The position numbers and the translations under genes were made by a program. This document shows positions 7,719 to 50,529 of a DNA stretch of 64,000 bases, one piece after another. Under the pieces are notes generated by a model. The model was given only the letters and a program-made list of their open reading frames with translations. It did not search any database and was not told the origin of the DNA. How positions within the stretch are numbered: the first letter of the stretch is position 1; every line of letters starts with the position of its first letter. Source of the DNA: Candidatus Uhrbacteria bacterium (GTDB lineage: Bacteria; Patescibacteriota; Patescibacteriia; 2-12-FULL-60-25); contig JAUSEV010000034.1 of NCBI GenBank assembly GCA_030649995.1, forward strand, positions 19,482 to 83,481, written 5' to 3'.

Positions 7719-7946
7719 TTATATCATATCTGAAAAATCTTGCGCGGAAATATTTGCCTCTCGCAAAATACTATGTAGCAATCCTCGTCCAATATCCTCG
7801 CCGCCATGTCTGGGCACCAACGTCGTTCGACCATCCGGATGTTTAAAAAAGATATGCGAACCCCTTGTTCTGATCTCCTCAAAACCTACACGTTTCAAAA
7901 CCCGTATGACATCCCTCGCCCGAACGGACGGGAGGCGCGGACTCAT
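7719..7946 (-). CDS. hicA: HicA-family toxin
   Basis: VIRVLKRVGFEEIRTRGSHIFFKHPDGRTTLVPRH matches the HicA/YcfA signature. 4-nt overlap with the upstream hicB. Confidence 0.8.
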   Translation of the reverse strand: MSPRLPSVRARDVIRVLKRVGFEEIRTRGSHIFFKHPDGRTTLVPRHGGEDIGRGLLHSILREANISAQDFSDMI

Positions 7947-8191
7947 ACCCGAACCGTTTCTACCCCGACAAACGTCGGCTCATAGGAAAAACCTCGAATC
8001 AAATTTTTATATTGACTATCCGTTTGCGCTACTTCTAAACAGAGAGCGATGGCTTCATGCAGTCTCTTTTGCAATTGCTCTAACGTCTTGGCTTGAGTAT
8101 GACAGCCGGGCAGACCTGGGACGGAGGCCATAAAAAATCCGTCTTCGTCGCGCTGGATAATCACCTTAAATTCTTTCATCTTTTTGGACAT
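7943..8191 (-). CDS. hicB: HicB-family antitoxin (UPF0150 fold); start uncertain
   Basis: FKVIIQRDEDGFFMASVPGLPGCHTQAKTLEQL is typical of the HicB N-domain. Confidence 0.7.
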   Translation of the reverse strand: MSKKMKEFKVIIQRDEDGFFMASVPGLPGCHTQAKTLEQLQKRLHEAIALCLEVAQTDSQYKNLIRGFSYEPTFVGVETVRV

Positions 8192-8250
8192 AGATTCTCT
8201 GAAGAGAGTACTCCCTAATCTTGGCTGGGTCAATTTTTTGAATGTACAAC

Positions 8251-10721
8251 TCACGTCGTGCGCGCCTCTGCGCCAAATTTTTCTTTCATCTGTTTCTTGA
8301 TCTGTTGCATGGCCTTGTCCACCTCTTCCGTTTCCAGCGTTCGCTCCGGTGATAAAAAGGTGAGATGAAACGCGAAGGATTTTTTATCCGCCGGGATTCC
8401 TTGTCCCGCATACGTATCAAACCATTCGACGTGATGGAGAAGCGGGCTGACCGCGTTCATGGCTTGCATCAACGTCTGAACTTCCAACTCGCGCGCGACG
8501 ATGAACGCCAAATCTCGCTTGGCTTCCGGATACAGCGGCAAAGGTTCGTACCGTTTTGCGGTGGTCGCCAGACGAAAAATATTTTCAAGCGGTAAATCAA
8601 TCATGGCGATTCGACCTTCGATTTTGAAACGCTCCGCAATCAACGGATGAACCTCACCCACCGTCCCCAATAAATGCTCTCCCAAAAACGCCTGCACCGT
8701 GCGCCCCGGATGCCAAAATTCGTCATCGATCAACGTCCGCCACGCAATTCTCGATTCTCCATTCTCTATTCTCAATTCTCGATACAAATATTCGACAAAC
8801 CCCTTCGCCTCGCGCCACGCTCGATCATCGCCCAAAAACGCCGCCCCAAGCTCCAACTGTTCATCCGGTAACTCTGTAAGCTGCAACCTGTCACCTGTAA
8901 CCTGTTTTGGATAGTACACGTGCGCGACTTCAAAAATCTTTTGTTGATGGAACCGTTCTTGATTTTCCGCCACGACTTGCAAAAGTGATGGCAAAAGCGT
9001 GGTGCGCATGAATGCAAAATCCGCGGTCAACGGATTGGCCACGCGCAACATATTTCTTGATTCATAGCCTGCCTTGGCTAACAATTCACTTGAAACAAAA
9101 GAATACGTGTACACCTCGGTGAGTCCGGCGCCTTTGGCAACGTGACGCGTGCGTTCTTCCCACACCAATTCAGGATCTCGATCACGCGTGGCCAATCCCA
9201 CGGGAAACACAGCCGGCAGATTCGCGTACCCGTGCACGCGCGCGATTTCTTCCACCAGATCGCGACCGGATTCGATATCGTGATCGCGCCAGTATGTGAC
9301 AGTAACTCGTAACTCGTAACTCGTTCGGAAAAACCCAGACGCTGTAGCGTGTCATACATTTCTTTGACAGGAAGTTCAACACCGATGAGGGCGTTCACTT
9401 CCGCGGTTTTGATGGAAAATTTCTTTGGCTGATATTTTTTTGTTTGAGAATCAAAAACCTTGCTCGCGACCTGACCGCCCGCAAGCTCCAAACACAGTTC
9501 AATGGCACGCGCGATGGCCAATGGCGGCGCTTCAGTCGAAAGTCCTTTTTCGAACAACGCTTGAGCGCCGGAATAGAGATTCAACTTTCGCGCGGTTCGA
9601 CGGATCGATACAGGATCAACGGTCGCGGCTTCAAACAAAATCGAGGTGGTATCCTTGGTGACCCCGGTCGCCTCCCCTCCCATCACTCCCACGATATCGA
9701 TCGGTTGACGTTCATCGGCAACGATCAACATCGTGTCATCCAGTTGATATTCCTTCCCATCCAACGCCAACATTTTTTCTCCCACTCGCGCTATTCTAAC
9801 TTCCAGTTTTGGCTGTGAGCTGTAAGCTGTAAGCTGTAAGCTGTCATACACGTGCATCGGTTGACCAATCTCGAGCATGACATAGTTCGTAATATCCACC
9901 ACGTTGTTGATCGGTCTAACGCCAGAAGAGATTAAGCGACGTTTGAGCCACCAAGGTGACGGTCCAACTTTGACGCCGTCGATTTGCACCGCCATGAAAC
10001 GCGGACAGAGGGTTTTGTCGGCGATGCGAACGGAAACCCCCGTCAAAGCTCCGACACGCTCGCTTTGACTCCCCCTTATCAGGGGGATATTCAAACTTCC
10101 TGCCCACAAAAATTTTCTCTTCAAAATCGCGGCCGCCTCGCGCGCCAACCCTGCGATACTCATCGCATCCGGACGGTTGGTCGTGACCTCCACATCCATC
10201 ACCACATCATCCGCCACACCAAGAAGATCTCCGAGCGGCATACCCGCCTTCAGTTTGGCTTCAGGTAAAGCTTTGTTCAAATCCAAAATCTCGCGCTCGA
10301 TATGTGGGAAAATATCAAAAAGGCCGATCTCATTTGCCGCGCAGATCATCCCCTCGCTTTTGATCCCACGAATTTCCGCCGATTTCAATTCGACCGGTTC
10401 TCCCTCGCCATGCCAACGCACCATGGCCCCGATCTTCGCGACGGCAACCCATTGATCAACCGCAAGATTTGATCCGCCGCAAACGATGGACAATGTTTTT
10501 CCTCCTACATCCACCAATGCCAATTTGAGCTTGTCTGCGTTTGGATGCGTCTTGATCTCGACCACACGACCCACGACAATCTGTCTCAGATGTTCCCCTT
10601 GCGGATATAAACGCTCTATCCCAGGCCCTGACAAAGAAATCCGCGATGCAAATTCCTCGGGCGTAATGCCTTTTAGATCCACATATTCTTTCAACCAGTT
10701 GTAGGAAGCGAGTAAGTTCAT
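8251..10721 (-). CDS. pheT: Phenylalanyl-tRNA synthetase beta subunit, reading frame broken at a heptamer tract (9301-9324)
   Basis: The N-terminal ~465 aa (tRNA-binding, B3/4 and B5 domains) lie in the frame of ORF 9078-10721. The remainder (TVTYWRDHDIESGRDLVEEIARVHGYANLP..) lies in the frame of ORF 8251-9255. The switch falls inside (GAGTTAC)x3. Confidence 0.9.
8747..8781. repeat. Heptamer tandem repeat (ATTCTCN)x5 inside the pheT CDS
   Basis: attctcg attctcc attctct attctca attctcg. Encodes RELRIENGESRI. Confidence 0.85.
8868..8905. repeat. 7-nt-periodic tract inside the pheT CDS
   Basis: gtaactc tgtaagc tgcaacc tgtcacc tgtaacc. Confidence 0.7.
9301..9324. repeat. Heptamer tandem repeat (GTAACTC)x3 at the pheT frameshift
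   Basis: Three perfect units. The two pheT reading frames meet here. Confidence 0.9.
9812..9846. repeat. Heptamer tandem repeat (GCTGTRA)x5 inside the pheT CDS
   Basis: gctgtga gctgtaa x3 gctgtca. Encodes LQLTAYSSQ. Confidence 0.85.
10070..10087. repeat. Short GC palindrome inside the pheT CDS
   Basis: TCCCCCTTATCAGGGGGA, translated as PLIRGS. Confidence 0.7.
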
Positions 10722-10724
10722 AGC

Positions 10725-11804
10725 TCAAAACTGCTGAAGGAAACGTAAATCATTTTTATACATCATGCGCAGATCATCCAACTTCATCCCCTCCTTCATC
10801 ATATAATTACGTTCAACACCCCATCCGAACGCGACTCCGGAATAGACGGATGAATCCACGCCTGCGGCTTTCAACACGTTGGGATGGAGCAGACCGCATC
10901 CACCAAGCTCCAACCATCCGCGCTTGCAGGTGCGACATTTTTCTTTTCCGATCATCCCCGTCCCTCCGCACACGCCGCACGACACATCCATTTCAAATGA
11001 CGGCTCTGTAAAACGAAAATGAAAAGGTCGAATGCGCACCTGACGCGTGGGACCAAAAAATTGTTTTACGAAATAATCCAAAATTCCAAGAAGATGCGTG
11101 ATGCCGACACCCTTGTCCACGTACACACCGTCGAACTGATGGAACATGGGCGTGTGCGTGATATCCATTTGTCGGCGATACGTTTTAGCGATGTTGATGG
11201 CGCGAATGGGAAATTTCTTTTCCGCTAAAATTCGGGCCGTGCCGCTCGTGGCATGCGGCGTCAAAATCATCTTGCCAAATTTCTTTGATTCCGGCGCGTC
11301 CATAAAAAACGTCTCCCACTCGTCGCGCGCCGGATGATCTTTTGGCATGTTAAGGGCTTCAAACGCATACCAATCCCATTCCACTTCCGGATAGCGCGTG
11401 CGCGTAAAACCGACGCGTTCAAAAATCTGCGTGATCTCCTCGATCGCCTGCGTCACCAAATGGAGATGTCCCTCGGGCGGACGGATCCCCGGTTCAGTCA
11501 CGTCTTCGGTTTGACCGGCGAGCGTCTGTTCGATATTTTCTCGACCCAATCTTTCTTTCGCCGCGTGAATTTTTTTCTCCGTCAAAATTTTTACTTCATT
11601 CGCCATGGCGCCGAGCTTGGGTCGGTCTTCGACCGATACCGTAGCCAATCCTTTCAAGATCGTCGTCAGCTCTCCCTTGCGCCCCAAAAATCGAATCTCA
11701 AGTGCTTCAATATCAACCAAAGTCTTAGCCTGCTTGATCGCTTGATCGGCGCTGATAGCCAATGTTTGAATTTGATCGGCGAGAGTCATAATGACATGAA
11801 TCAT
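10725..11804 (-). CDS. pheS: Phenylalanyl-tRNA synthetase alpha subunit
   Basis: Class II core motifs (HPARDEWETFF, FRFTEPSFEMD, GWGVERNYM). ATGA overlap with the tgt stop. Confidence 0.95.
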   Translation of the reverse strand: MIHVIMTLADQIQTLAISADQAIKQAKTLVDIEALEIRFLGRKGELTTILKGLATVSVEDRPKLGAMANEVKILTEKKIHAAKERLGRENIEQTLAGQTEDVTEPGIRPPEGHLHLVTQAIEEITQIFERVGFTRTRYPEVEWDWYAFEALNMPKDHPARDEWETFFMDAPESKKFGKMILTPHATSGTARILAEKKFPIRAINIAKTYRRQMDITHTPMFHQFDGVYVDKGVGITHLLGILDYFVKQFFGPTRQVRIRPFHFRFTEPSFEMDVSCGVCGGTGMIGKEKCRTCKRGWLELGGCGLLHPNVLKAAGVDSSVYSGVAFGWGVERNYMMKEGMKLDDLRMMYKNDLRFLQQF

Positions 11805-12868
11805 GAATCATGAATCGTCAAACGAATCTTCCGCATAAGCTCCAAATAAAATTTTACGTTGATGATCGTCGCTAACCGATACCCAAGCATTTCATCCACG
11901 GTAAACAGATGGCGGAGGTAGCCAAGAGAGACCTCGCCCATCCTCTCCTTCGTAAGGAGAGGGGTTTTTGAAAATTTCCATTTCTCATTTGTGATGTGAA
12001 TGGTTTCGTAAAAATCCGGTTTTGATAAATCGTCGTGAACAAAACGATACAGTTGGCCGTGGCGCGCATTCCGAGTCGGCAGCACGCAATCAAACATGTC
12101 AATCCCGCGTTTCACATATTCCACGATCTCGTGCGGTTGCGCGCCGCCCATAAAATAACGCGGCTTATCTTTCGGCAAAATCGGATCCAAATGGTCCAAC
12201 ATCTGACAAGCGTCTTGATGAGATTCGCCAACGGATAAACCGCCGATTGCGTACCCGTCAAATCCTATTTCCATCAATTCCCGCGCGCTCTGTTCCCGCA
12301 ATTTGATGTTTGTTCCTCCTTGCACAATGCCGAAAAGTTTGGCTTGGGGATTGATCGATCCTTCACGCGTTTCATCAAATCTTTTTTTTGATCGTCTTGC
12401 CCAATCCGTGGTTCTACGGCTTGCCTCCAGCAGCTCCTCCTGTGTCGCCGGTAATTTTGAACACACATCCAGCACCATGCAAATATCGCTGCCAATCACG
12501 CGCTGAATGTCCATGCACGCTTCCGGCGTCAAAAACATTTTAGCTCCATCAATGTGCGACTGAAACATGACCCCCTCATCCGAAAGTTTTCGCAAGCCCT
12601 CCAAACTGAAAACCTGAAACCCGCCCGAATCGGTCAAAATCGCGCCGGGCCAGTTCATAAATTGATGCAACCCGCCAAAAGATTTTAAAACTTCAAGCCC
12701 CGGCCTCAACCATAAATGATAAGCGTTCGCGAGGATGATCGGTGATCCCAACTCTTCCACATCAAAACTCGACAGCGTCTTGACCGCACCGCGCGTAGCA
12801 ATGGGCATGAAAAAAGGAGTTTCCAATGTCCCGTGCGCCGTCTCGAGAAGAGTTTGACGAGCGCCCAT
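11801..12868 (-). CDS. tgt: Queuine tRNA-ribosyltransferase
   Basis: LANAYHLWLRPG, ILTDSGGFQVFS and YAIGGLSVGE motifs. Confidence 0.95.
   Translation of the reverse strand: MGARQTLLETAHGTLETPFFMPIATRGAVKTLSSFDVEELGSPIILANAYHLWLRPGLEVLKSFGGLHQFMNWPGAILTDSGGFQVFSLEGLRKLSDEGVMFQSHIDGAKMFLTPEACMDIQRVIGSDICMVLDVCSKLPATQEELLEASRRTTDWARRSKKRFDETREGSINPQAKLFGIVQGGTNIKLREQSARELMEIGFDGYAIGGLSVGESHQDACQMLDHLDPILPKDKPRYFMGGAQPHEIVEYVKRGIDMFDCVLPTRNARHGQLYRFVHDDLSKPDFYETIHITNEKWKFSKTPLLTKERMGEVSLGYLRHLFTVDEMLGYRLATIINVKFYLELMRKIRLTIHDS
11942..11962. repeat. 21-nt palindrome CCTCTCCTTCGTAAGGAGAGG in frame in tgt
   Basis: Identical 21-mer also at 34510-34530. Encodes PLLTKERMGE. Confidence 0.85.
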
Positions 12869-16395: not shown

Positions 16396-19389
16396 TCAAA
16401 TCTTCTTAAACTCGCAAATGTTCTTAAAGTCACAAAAGCGACAAACAAAAGGATCCGGCGTGGGCGTAAAATCGGAACGTAAAATTTCGTCCATGCGATC
16501 CGTCACTTTTTCCATGAAATCCTCACGATCTTTCCCGATCAGCGGCTCCACATCCATCATCTGCCAGTCCAAAACGTACACATACGCCAAACGGCCGACC
16601 TTGACCCCTTTTTCCTCCAAAGCGATCTGATAGAGATGAAGCTGTTCCTTGTCCTCGGACGTGAGTTTCTCTTTTGCCCGTCCGGTTTTGTAATCAAACA
16701 CGGCCACGCGATCATCGGGCATACAGTCGATGCGATCGATTTTTCCCTTGAGCGAATGCATACCCAACACCAACGTAAAATCTTTTTCGATCTCGAGCAT
16801 ATCCGGCGCGGATTCCGTACAAGCTTGCAGAAAATGTTTGATCGCTTTTTTTCCGTTCGCGCGATACTCATCATGCTGCGCGCGAGAGTCATACCACTCG
16901 TCTATCCACGCCTCTTCAAAAATTTCCATAGCCTCTTCTTCGGTAACGCGAAATCCGGAGGTAGGCTGTGAGCTGTGAGCTGTGAGCTGTGAGCTGAATA
17001 AGTCTCCCTGCACGGATTTCATGCGCATCAGATGCAGATTCGATATCCGCTGCAAGGCGAGGTGAACGGATTGACCGAAACTTTTTTGATAGGAACCGAA
17101 TTTTGGAATGCGATAAATATGTTCAAATTTATATTGCAAAGGGCATTTCCGAAAGGCCGCCAGCTGGGTAAAACTGAACCGCCGCTTGAGCGGATAGAGG
17201 GGCGGCGATACCTCATCCGGAGCGAGATGCGTTTCCGGAGGACGCAAAGCGCGCGCTTCATCATCGGATGAAGCGGGCAGATCCTGTACAACAAAACCCG
17301 CTTCCGCAAAAAAAGGCGACGGTTTTTTCTGACGCGCGCCGCCATAAGAACTGGCGCCGGTGAGGGTGAGCGTATTTTTTGCGCGAGTCAAAGCCACATA
17401 AAATAATCGACGTTCCTCTTCCAAATGCACATCCCCTTCCGGCAACCGTTCCTGCACCAATCCATCAGGCAACGGAATGGTCTCGCTTCTGGCGCGTGTG
17501 GGAAAACGCTGCTCAACAAGTGAAGCGACAAATACGTGTGAAAATTCCAAACCCTTGGCCGCGTGCACCGTGAAAATTTTTACCATGTCCGGTCCGGCGT
17601 CTGGGTCCGATTCCAGCGCCCCCTCTTCCCCGCTCTCCATCTCCAGACGCAACTCTTCCAAAAATCCCCGTAAATTTGGACCGTGCGCGGATGTTTCATA
17701 CCGTTGCACGCGATCGGCGAAGGCATGAAGGAACTGAAGCGCCTCCCGACGTTCCCGCTCCGGCAGTCGAAGCACCGTCGCCAAGTATCCTGTTTTTTCC
17801 AGCATCCATTGAAAAACTTTGAACGGCGGTTCGCGGCGCGCCGTTTCGGACAAAAGTTCAACCGTACTCAACATTTTTTCGGCCAGTCGCGCGCCGTCGC
17901 CGCTCACGGTCAATTCCGGATTCCGACGCGCCGCCTCCTTTACGGCAAGCCACAACGGCAACCCTTTGCGATTGGCGAAATGAGAAAATTCCGCCACATC
18001 CTTTTGCGGAAACGGATAGCACGCCATATGCAATGCTCGCCAAACAGACGAGGATTCGTGGTACCCATCAAGCAAAGACAAAAACGCGATGACGTCCAAC
18101 ACGACCGGCTTTGAGTAGAGTCCGCGCAACGCCAAAAACTGAAAAGGAATTCCATGACGGGCCAAAGCGCGCACAAACGGCTCGGCCCCGTCATTGGAAC
18201 GCACGAGAATGGCAAAATCATTCCAACTCGTCTTCGTTTCCTGTTTTTTCCATTCCTTGATGCGTTCGATAACGGCGTCCGCCTCATCTTCCACGCTCTG
18301 TTTCCATAACACTTCCACGCTTCCTCCTTCCCCGCGCACCGCCTCAAGCGCCTTGGAAAGACCGGCATCTTTAAGCTGAACTTCCAAACGATGTGGATCG
18401 TTTTTTTGGATAAATTGATAGGCGTGCGACAGAATTTCCTTGTGTGAACGATAATTTTTTGTGAGAGCGATCGCTTTTGCCTCCGGAAAATCATCGCGAA
18501 ACTGTAAAATGTTGGCGAGCGAGGCCCCGCGAAATCTGTAAATGGCTTGATCGTCGTCGCCAACCACCGTCAAATTCCGCTTCTCGCCGGCCAGTAATTT
18601 TAACAATTCATACTGCGCCCCGTTGGTGTCTTGAAACTCGTCCACCATAATGAAATGAAATTGCGCCCGATATTTTTCTAGCACGGCCGGTCGCTCGCGA
18701 AACAACCGTAACGTCTCCAAAATCAAATCTCCAAAATCCAAACACCCTTCTTCGAGCAAGATGCGACGATACGCAAAATACAAATCCACGAGTTCCTGCA
18801 AACGTTTTTTCTCGCCGATGATAATTTCACTGTCACCATCCAGCGTCAAATTTTGTAAAAATGACAAATAGCGCTCCGGCGTGATGCCTTCATCTTTCGC
18901 TCGCAAAATGTGCTGAATCAACGCTCGCAAAAATTTAACGGGATTGCCGAGCGGACGATAATGGTCAAGCGGCAATTCATCGAGATGACGCTTGAGTAAG
19001 AGCCACGCGTCGGTTGGCGTGAGCAAACGAAATTGATTGGGAAGTCCTATCTCGAGTCCATGCGCCTCGAGTACACGCTGACAAAATCCGTGAAATGTCG
19101 AAATCCAAAAATCGTAGGTGCCGGTCGGCAACAGTTGCAAAATCCGATCCTCCATCTCCCCCGCCGCTTTATCGGTGAACGTAAGCGCGAGTAAATTTTC
19201 CGTTTTGATTCTCCCCCTTTCGAAGGGGGAGTTAGCGGGGGTTGGAGCCGTTGACAACAAATGCACATACCGTCGCGTCAACACCGTCGTTTTCCCCGTC
19301 CCTGCCCCAGCCACAATCAAAAGCGGCCCGTCACGATGAGTCACCGCCTGAAGCTGCGCTTCATTCAATGTATCCAACAAATTTTCCAT
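16396..19389 (-). CDS. UvrD/PcrA-type SF1 helicase fused to a C-terminal PD-(D/E)xK nuclease with a Cys cluster
   Basis: AGAGTGKTT, DEFQDTN, VGDDDQAIYRFRGA, TVHAAKGLEF and ALTRAK helicase motifs. Nuclease IDRID..VFDYKTG and CRFCDFKNIC at the C-terminus. Confidence 0.9.
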   Translation of the reverse strand: MENLLDTLNEAQLQAVTHRDGPLLIVAGAGTGKTTVLTRRYVHLLSTAPTPANSPFERGRIKTENLLALTFTDKAAGEMEDRILQLLPTGTYDFWISTFHGFCQRVLEAHGLEIGLPNQFRLLTPTDAWLLLKRHLDELPLDHYRPLGNPVKFLRALIQHILRAKDEGITPERYLSFLQNLTLDGDSEIIIGEKKRLQELVDLYFAYRRILLEEGCLDFGDLILETLRLFRERPAVLEKYRAQFHFIMVDEFQDTNGAQYELLKLLAGEKRNLTVVGDDDQAIYRFRGASLANILQFRDDFPEAKAIALTKNYRSHKEILSHAYQFIQKNDPHRLEVQLKDAGLSKALEAVRGEGGSVEVLWKQSVEDEADAVIERIKEWKKQETKTSWNDFAILVRSNDGAEPFVRALARHGIPFQFLALRGLYSKPVVLDVIAFLSLLDGYHESSSVWRALHMACYPFPQKDVAEFSHFANRKGLPLWLAVKEAARRNPELTVSGDGARLAEKMLSTVELLSETARREPPFKVFQWMLEKTGYLATVLRLPERERREALQFLHAFADRVQRYETSAHGPNLRGFLEELRLEMESGEEGALESDPDAGPDMVKIFTVHAAKGLEFSHVFVASLVEQRFPTRARSETIPLPDGLVQERLPEGDVHLEEERRLFYVALTRAKNTLTLTGASSYGGARQKKPSPFFAEAGFVVQDLPASSDDEARALRPPETHLAPDEVSPPLYPLKRRFSFTQLAAFRKCPLQYKFEHIYRIPKFGSYQKSFGQSVHLALQRISNLHLMRMKSVQGDLFSSQLTAHSSQPTSGFRVTEEEAMEIFEEAWIDEWYDSRAQHDEYRANGKKAIKHFLQACTESAPDMLEIEKDFTLVLGMHSLKGKIDRIDCMPDDRVAVFDYKTGRAKEKLTSEDKEQLHLYQIALEEKGVKVGRLAYVYVLDWQMMDVEPLIGKDREDFMEKVTDRMDEILRSDFTPTPDPFVCRFCDFKNICEFKKI
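16965..16996. repeat. Heptamer tandem repeat (GCTGTGA)x4 inside the helicase-nuclease CDS
   Basis: Four perfect units. Encodes SSQLTAHSSQ. Confidence 0.9.
19209..19250. repeat. ~40-nt GC palindromic element in frame in the helicase CDS
   Basis: CTCCCCCTTTCGAAGGGGGAGTTAGCGGGGGTTGGAGCC, ~85 percent identical by eye to 58421-58460. Confidence 0.75.
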
Positions 19390-26956: not shown

Positions 26957-26990
26957 CTCATTACTCATTACTCATTACTCATTACGCATT
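26957..26990. repeat. Heptamer tandem repeat (CTCATTA)x4
   Basis: Intergenic, immediately downstream of the GT4 gene stop. Confidence 0.85.
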
Positions 26991-33216: not shown

Positions 33217-33231
33217 ATGATGTAGAAAAAT

Positions 33232-33323
33232 GAGTAATGAGTAATGCGTAATGCGTAATGAGTAATGCGTAATGAGTAATGAGCCATTCAGATCGCATTA
33301 CGCATTACTCATTACGCATTACG
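33232..33323. repeat. Heptamer array (RGTAATG)x7 facing four inverted units: a hairpin built from heptamers
   Basis: gagtaat/gcgtaat units at 33232-33280. Reverse-complement units cattacg/cattact at 33295-33323. Confidence 0.85.
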
Positions 33324-50450: not shown

Positions 50451-50529
50451 GAGATAATGGATAATAGAGATAAGAGATAAGAGATAAGAGATAAGAAAAA
50501 AGAATGGAGAATGGAGAATAAGAAATAGA
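50451..50529. repeat. Heptamer arrays (GAGATAA)xN then (GAATGGA)-type units
   Basis: gagataa tggataa .. gagataa x4 gaaaaaa gaatgga x2 gaataag. Confidence 0.85.

Follow-up and report, generated by a model that had tools for sequence, protein, structure and literature searches.

Why should the only copy of an essential gene appear broken in a genome that is 99% complete? The question is raised by pheT, which encodes the β subunit of PheRS, in an assembly of Candidatus Uhrbacteria (G000; 1.08 Mb, 50 contigs, 0.26% contamination). We analysed a 64,000-nt stretch of one contig (hereinafter the window), in which pheT occupies the minus strand at 10721..8251 and switches from one frame to another within a perfect (GAGTTAC)x3.3 tract at 9302-9324. 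TRF describes this tract as period 7, 3.3 copies and 100% matches; it consists of three GAGTTAC units plus 2 nt on the minus strand, 23 periodic nt in all, and its motif would be expected by chance 0.01 times in the window. The minus strand reads ..CTG GGT TTT TCC GAA C(GAGTTAC)(GAGTTAC)(GAGTTAC)TGTCACATACTGG.. across the break, the switch falling in CGAAC(GAGTTAC)3TGTCAC. From the ATG at 10721, frame 0 continues for ~470 residues to ..LQRLGFSERVTSYELL, after which come 81 unrelated codons and, at 9078, a stop. Translation in the C-terminal frame gives ..SYELRVTVTYWRDHDIESGRDLVEEIARVHGYANLP.. up to the stop at 8251, and the conserved continuation ..VTVTYWRDHDIESGRDLVEEIARVHGYANLP.. sits in the frame that is gained by adding one base.

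Homology to relatives follows the N-terminal frame up to 9312 and the C-terminal frame from 9327 on, placing the shift inside the tract. The two frames are rejoined by adding 7 nt or by removing 14 nt, and since 7 mod 3 = 1, any single-unit change breaks the frame. With four units the protein would read ..GFSERVTSYELRVTVTYWRDHDI... The initial annotation, made from the letters of the window, had located a frameshift of pheT inside (GAGTTAC)x3 and had predicted that a fourth unit would restore the frame. The minus-strand sequence, the TRF call and the homology limits bear out the first claim, and the four-unit protein matches the text given there exactly. The peptides differ between the readings: SERVTSYELRVTVPYWR belongs to the four-unit product and VTSYELLSHTGAITISNPVAIWWK to the truncated, out-of-frame one.

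Pfam assigns tRNA_bind and B3_4 to the first piece of the gene, and the second half of B5, the tRNA_synthFbeta core and FDX-ACB to the second. The N-terminal frame (minus strand, 9312..10721, residues 1 to ~470, with an ORF that continues out of frame to 9078) thus ends in the first half of B5, the C-terminal frame (minus strand, 8251..9327, stop included) starts in its second half, and the break bisects the domain. Together the two halves display the domain order of PheT (tRNA_bind, B3_4, B5, tRNA_synthFbeta core, FDX-ACB), and B5 is whole only when the frames are joined by four units. Membership in the PheT family is further indicated by the adjoining pheS and by the single copy, and the names on homologues are those of Patescibacteria or Candidatus Uhrbacteria. 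The pheS gene for the alpha subunit (minus strand, 10725..11804) is an intact ORF immediately upstream of pheT, and PF01409 is found in the neighbour gene at the locus of a relative. Exact-protein look-ups with PheS and with the 547-aa ORF returned no record.

To which copy number does a working protein correspond? We compared the site with 19 relatives of 55-65% identity, each of which has one open frame across it. Seventeen of the 19 can be aligned with the four-unit reading, ..LGFSERVTSYELRVTV[T]YWRDHD, with no gap, and the two others carry extra residues at the site (four in L005 and one in L009). This comparison with sibling genomes, which the initial annotation had proposed as a check, returns the protein length of the relatives for four units. 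The Pfam B5 score is 61.0 bits with four units, compared with 50.5 bits with one unit and 56.8 bits with seven, and rises to 67.1 bits when four units are combined with a proline just past the tract. That proline corresponds to position 9296 on the minus strand, where the window carries a T on the plus strand (codon ACA, Thr, if in frame); 18 of the 19 relatives have Pro here, within VPWWRDHD.

Why the length is held is suggested by the AlphaFold2 model of P0001, the closest relative (mean pLDDT 85). Residues 440-444 and 447-451 are modelled as two strands with a two-residue turn between them (pLDDT ~88-91), after a helix ending in LQRLGF, and the repeat codes for precisely this strand pair. 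The tract is thus predicted to encode a two-stranded beta-hairpin of the B5 domain, and a hairpin of fixed length fits the conserved residue count. Three heptamers amount to 21 nt, or 7 aa, a repeat that suits strand-turn-strand spacing. In P0001 itself (85% identity over this part), the DNA of the hairpin consists of ACGCTCC ACGCTAA ACGCTCC ACGCTAA ACGCTAC; L003 uses AGCTAAC-type units and L017 a 14-mer, and more distant, family-level relatives are non-periodic here, the protein length being equal in every case. Judged from these sequences, the pheT hairpin appears to be a long-lived repeat site with turnover of its units. At the loci of the closest relative (L023), L003 and L017, the arrays replace sequence at the B5 hairpin and add no length.

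A second assembly of the same sample provides an allele to set beside the deposited one. Run X1 is a groundwater metagenome holding the same strain, and the comparison was made on its Logan contigs rather than on raw reads. The two assemblies are identical over ~100 kb (window positions 1-60000 plus 40 kb of two other contigs) except for four differences: the pheT tract, the SNP beside it, a CATGAAT tract, and one ordinary SNP on contig C28. The C-terminal half of pheT is covered by L022 (SRR13727527, 5941 nt), which agrees with the window except at its last bases. It begins with ACGAGTTACGAGTTACGAGTTACGAGTTAC followed by TGTCCCATAC, namely at least four units and then CCA for Pro; the start, AC plus 4 x GAGTTAC, amounts to 30 periodic nt where the window has 23, and ACGAGTTACGAGTTACGAGTTACGAGTTAC leads into the right flank TGTCCCATACTGG. 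Six bases past the tract L022 has C and the window A, the Logan form of the SNP at 9296 (G on the plus strand). An allele with at least four units is therefore present in the same sample. L022 stops at exactly k-1 = 30 periodic nt and hence sets a lower bound of four units, not an exact count, and no Logan contig includes the left flank (9325-9375).

The second discordant tract, CATGAAT at 11795-11816, lies 2.5 kb from the pheT tract, and here too Logan is one unit longer. No tract indels other than these two were seen in the ~100 kb compared. The Logan contigs pass through the concordant tracts shorter than 30 nt and break within the allele-specific part of both discordant tracts, the pattern that a length polymorphism would give. 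A perfect repeat whose alleles differ by whole units within one population is what characterizes a slipped-strand SSR, and both features are seen here at the level of contigs. In wider searches, no runs holding the 96-nt junction were found, runs X2 and X5 contain only a ~90-95% identical relative whose contigs break at the tracts too, and the flank-gap-flank pattern had no match in JGI metagenome contigs or GTDB genomes.

Taken together, these results make it quite probable that the break marks a slippage-prone heptanucleotide SSR in a single essential pheT, caught one unit short either as a real allele or through a choice of the assembler. The functional allele would comprise 30 periodic nt, or four units, followed closely by a CCA (Pro) codon; the deposited version is one unit shorter (23 periodic nt), carries a linked substitution, and would represent either a slipped allele found in some of the cells or a wrong turn of the assembler at a polymorphic repeat. 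Slipped-strand mispairing is the presumed cause, the longer allele probably has exactly four units, and it is likely to be the majority form in living cells. Whether allele or artefact, the frameshift is not fixed. The initial annotation had offered collapse of one unit during assembly and real length heterogeneity as explanations; the at least four units of L022, the length of the relatives and the B5 score support the two as a pair, and contigs do not separate one from the other.

That the assembler is at fault is possible, if somewhat doubtful: all reads would then carry four units, and the MAG assembler would have taken the shortest path through a k=21 de Bruijn loop of a 29-30-nt period-7 tract. 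The MAG is indeed shorter by exactly one unit at both discordant tracts, and both of its tracts, at 22-23 nt, would correspond to the shortest phase-consistent path at k=21. Against this, the MAG does not shorten perfect tracts of 29-33 nt elsewhere (29 nt on C18, 32 nt on C28 and 32 nt at window position 16965, all equal to Logan), and a collapsed loop does not account for the SNP 6 nt from the tract. With just two SNPs in ~100 kb, one beside the tract is unlikely to be a coincidence. Collapse of every tract at k=21 was also considered as a general rule and rejected, as tracts of 23, 29 and 32 nt agree between the MAG and Logan. Of the two forms of the slippage reading we therefore favour a real haplotype, which would combine three pheT units, the A and three CATGAAT units, beside an in-frame one. 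Some considerations weigh against slippage. Living cells should seldom carry a null allele of an essential gene; if the three-unit form were real and abundant, simple slippage would not suffice as an explanation. A four-unit tract is also short relative to well-studied phase-variable tracts, such that its slippage rate may be low.

A stronger version, in which the three-unit, out-of-frame allele is both real and common and the lineage keeps ~30-nt arrays at tolerant sites of essential genes, seems unlikely. Were this version true, one-unit slips would continually make null aaRS alleles, frequent enough to be assembled, and the arrays would occupy fixed, structurally tolerant sites, rewritten with new units at constant protein length. 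It would imply tolerance, be it that each cell has more than one copy of the genome or that attached cells share with one another, or alternatively a heavy, hitherto unrecognised mutational load from a replication or repair process specific to a 7-nt register.

Much less probable is a fixed pseudogene in a strain that has truly lost PheT and obtains its function otherwise. The window allele does combine two nearby defects, the frameshift and the loss of a conserved Pro. PheRS β, however, is universally essential in bacteria, and a whole-genome search of G000 recovers just the two pieces of pheT. Within the limits of a MAG that is 99% complete, this excludes an intact second copy, which the initial annotation had named, together with three-unit reads at high depth, as the sign of a pseudogene. 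Furthermore, pheS is intact, both halves of pheT are free of stops or further shifts, and the Logan contig L022 brings from the same sample an allele with no fewer than four units, a number that would keep the frame if exact. The gene shows a single shift rather than the accumulated defects or functional second copy that mark a pseudogene.

Least credible of all is a programmed -1 frameshift at G GGU UUU (9336-9330) that would rescue the three-unit allele: the site (G GGT TTT, minus strand, 9330..9336, zero frame) has the canonical X XXY YYZ form, is correctly phased and precedes the tract by 6 nt, and ribosomes slipping by -1 at this point would join the C-terminal frame past its last upstream stop. 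Yet the heptamer simply spells the conserved L-G-F codons and recurs with the same bases in L016, where the gene is intact, shuffled sequences fold better than the RNA downstream (z = +1.9 and +2.4), all 19 of the 19 relatives compared use a single frame across the site, and the product, ..LGFFRTSYELRVTVTYWRD.. with GFFRTSYELR, would be two residues shorter than in relatives and would shorten by that much a hairpin otherwise of conserved length. We therefore regard it as a look-alike of a -1 slippery site and reject it as a recoding site, the slippery heptamer being present and both the downstream structure and two-frame conservation in relatives being absent. The related proposal of the initial annotation, translational frameshifting on the repeat itself, finds no support either, as a stimulatory structure is lacking and the relatives are unshifted.

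Slippage of a coding heptamer has a close precedent. In neuO of E. coli K1, carried by the CUS-3 prophage, the copy number of an in-ORF (AAGACTC)n sets the reading frame, strand slippage is the accepted cause, and alleles of plus or minus one unit accounted for 1.9% and 5.4% beside 93% in one culture (PMC13001214). The pheT tract likewise has a 7-nt unit in coding sequence; the frame moves whenever one unit is gained or lost, and full translation is obtained only at every third copy number. In contrast to neuO, a dispensable accessory gene with 3-53 units and an adaptive ON/OFF switch, pheT is essential and has 3-4 units, and its OFF state should be lethal, which makes the tract a liability rather than a switch. 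The tetra- and heptanucleotide contingency loci of Haemophilus influenzae, long tracts in surface, LPS or restriction-modification genes (PMC2651432, PMC8262952), resemble the pheT locus in that slipped-strand mispairing of perfect SSRs yields unit-number alleles within a population. The likeness is mechanical: a contingency locus switches a dispensable gene reversibly ON and OFF with adaptive benefit, and pheT does not qualify, because the gene is essential and its OFF state cannot be adaptive. We know of no essential translation gene that is a contingency locus.

The tract belongs to a much larger population of heptamer arrays. TRF detects 333 arrays of period 7 in G000 (307 per Mb), periods 6 and 8 contributing 42 and 66, and among perfect arrays of at least three copies the numbers are 68 for period 7 and 4 and 1 for periods 6 and 8, respectively. 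This genome-wide excess over the neighbouring periods qualifies them as over-represented heptanucleotide SSRs. About 105 of the 333 lie in frame within long ORFs, and pheT holds the only frame-breaker, as expected if out-of-frame states are selected against; only three-unit changes would be viable in a coding tract, consistent with all other coding tracts of the genome being in frame. Additional frame-breaking tracts suggested by merging ORFs proved to be gene junctions, the case on C6 being the rpoB-rpoC spacer.

Three of the in-frame tracts are in pheT itself, all on the minus strand. TTACAGC x4.7 (9812..9844) forms a 4-5 aa insertion relative to the relatives and is identical in the Logan contig; a degenerate AGGTTAC x5.3 tract (8868..8905) falls in a variable loop; and a degenerate CGAGAAT x5.3 tract (8747..8783) is a small insertion relative to the relatives.

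The discordant CATGAAT tract is, on the minus strand, a second perfect tract, (ATTCATG)x3.1 at 11795..11816. Here the overlap between the tgt stop and the pheS start (ATGA) is itself multiplied as (ATTCATG)n; since each unit brings its own ATG and forms a TGA together with the adjacent one, a change of copy number is neutral. Many junction arrays likewise multiply a TAATG overlap. Directly downstream of pheT, at 7719-8254, Pfam hits on the Logan contig genes place a HicA toxin / HicB antitoxin pair.

Arrays of this kind have been described before. Over-represented heptanucleotide SSRs are reported from bacteria (Mrazek et al. 2007, as summarised in PMC4692102), known arrays being GGGAATC in Xanthomonas, GGGGAYT in Nostoc and the STRR of Calothrix, and polymerase slippage in a 7-nt register has been proposed as the cause (PMC4692102). 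The G000 arrays resemble them in an excess of period 7 over 6 and 8, in being mostly intergenic, and in a length and sequence that vary between close relatives. The earlier arrays comprise one or a few G-rich unit types and are nearly all intergenic (PMC4692102); unlike these, the arrays of G000 fall into 118 unit classes, are A/T-rich and enriched in TAA and GTAA, and lie to one third in frame in housekeeping genes. Our literature search on heptamer arrays in CPR bacteria found nothing specific.

Several consequences follow for annotation and biology. The pheT of this genome should not be counted as a pseudogene or as a lost essential function, and MAG pipelines will mis-call genes at such heptamer tracts. 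The locus offers a concrete case of an essential translation gene whose repeat cannot gain or lose one unit without lethal effect. It also places the repeat in a structured hairpin of conserved length, the DNA of which has been homogenised anew, into other heptamers, in sister species. Finally, the origin and cost of heptamer arrays in Patescibacteria become testable by simple read counting.

The arrays of G000 share a number of compositional features. TAA is present in 53% of units and GTAA in 29% (examples in the window are at 16965-16996, 26957-26990, 33229-33323 and 50466-50496), and the same units recur at many loci (GTAATGC at 25, GTAAGCT at 15 and CTAATGT at 15). A stop trinucleotide occurs in non-coding arrays on at least one strand in 89% and on both strands in 43% (random genomic 7-mers, 25%), and in coding arrays the stop-bearing strand is the antisense strand. 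Among perfect period-7 runs, the length distribution has its peaks at 13, 20 and 27 nt (7n-1), with almost none above 33 nt, which suggests a preferred quantum of ~4 units with the terminal copy one base short.

Relatives differ widely in whether they show the heptamer excess. Counted in samples of 20 kb, arrays number 4.1 per 10 kb in the window, and three other genomes reach 3.2 (G006, L051), 6.0 (G023, L039) and 4.5 (G036, L040), G023 having as many period-8 as period-7 arrays. Ten of the 14 samples from the same family or genus are at 0-0.5 arrays per 10 kb, and three at 1.0.

Many contigs of G000 have at their ends (for example the 5' ends of C9, C10 and C21, and ends of C18, C19, C22, C23, C28 and C36) the same two or three dispersed repeats, CCCCATTTACTCATCGACTTGTGACAGGTCGGGCAATGTT and TGAGGGCGGACTCAACAGCCGCCTCAAAGAATTGTTTCGA; multi-copy dispersed repeats, not heptamer tracts, fragment the MAG assembly. 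Contig breaks in the pheT of relatives were also considered, and the one in G018 was discarded as an ordinary overlap without a tract; in G003 the pheT contig end falls inside a heptamer tract. In G011, a relative assembled as a single contig, pheT (L030, G011:C1:495150-496100) is spread over three frames with one TGA, and the shifts are located away from heptamer tracts, possibly, at a guess, as a result of indel errors in long reads.
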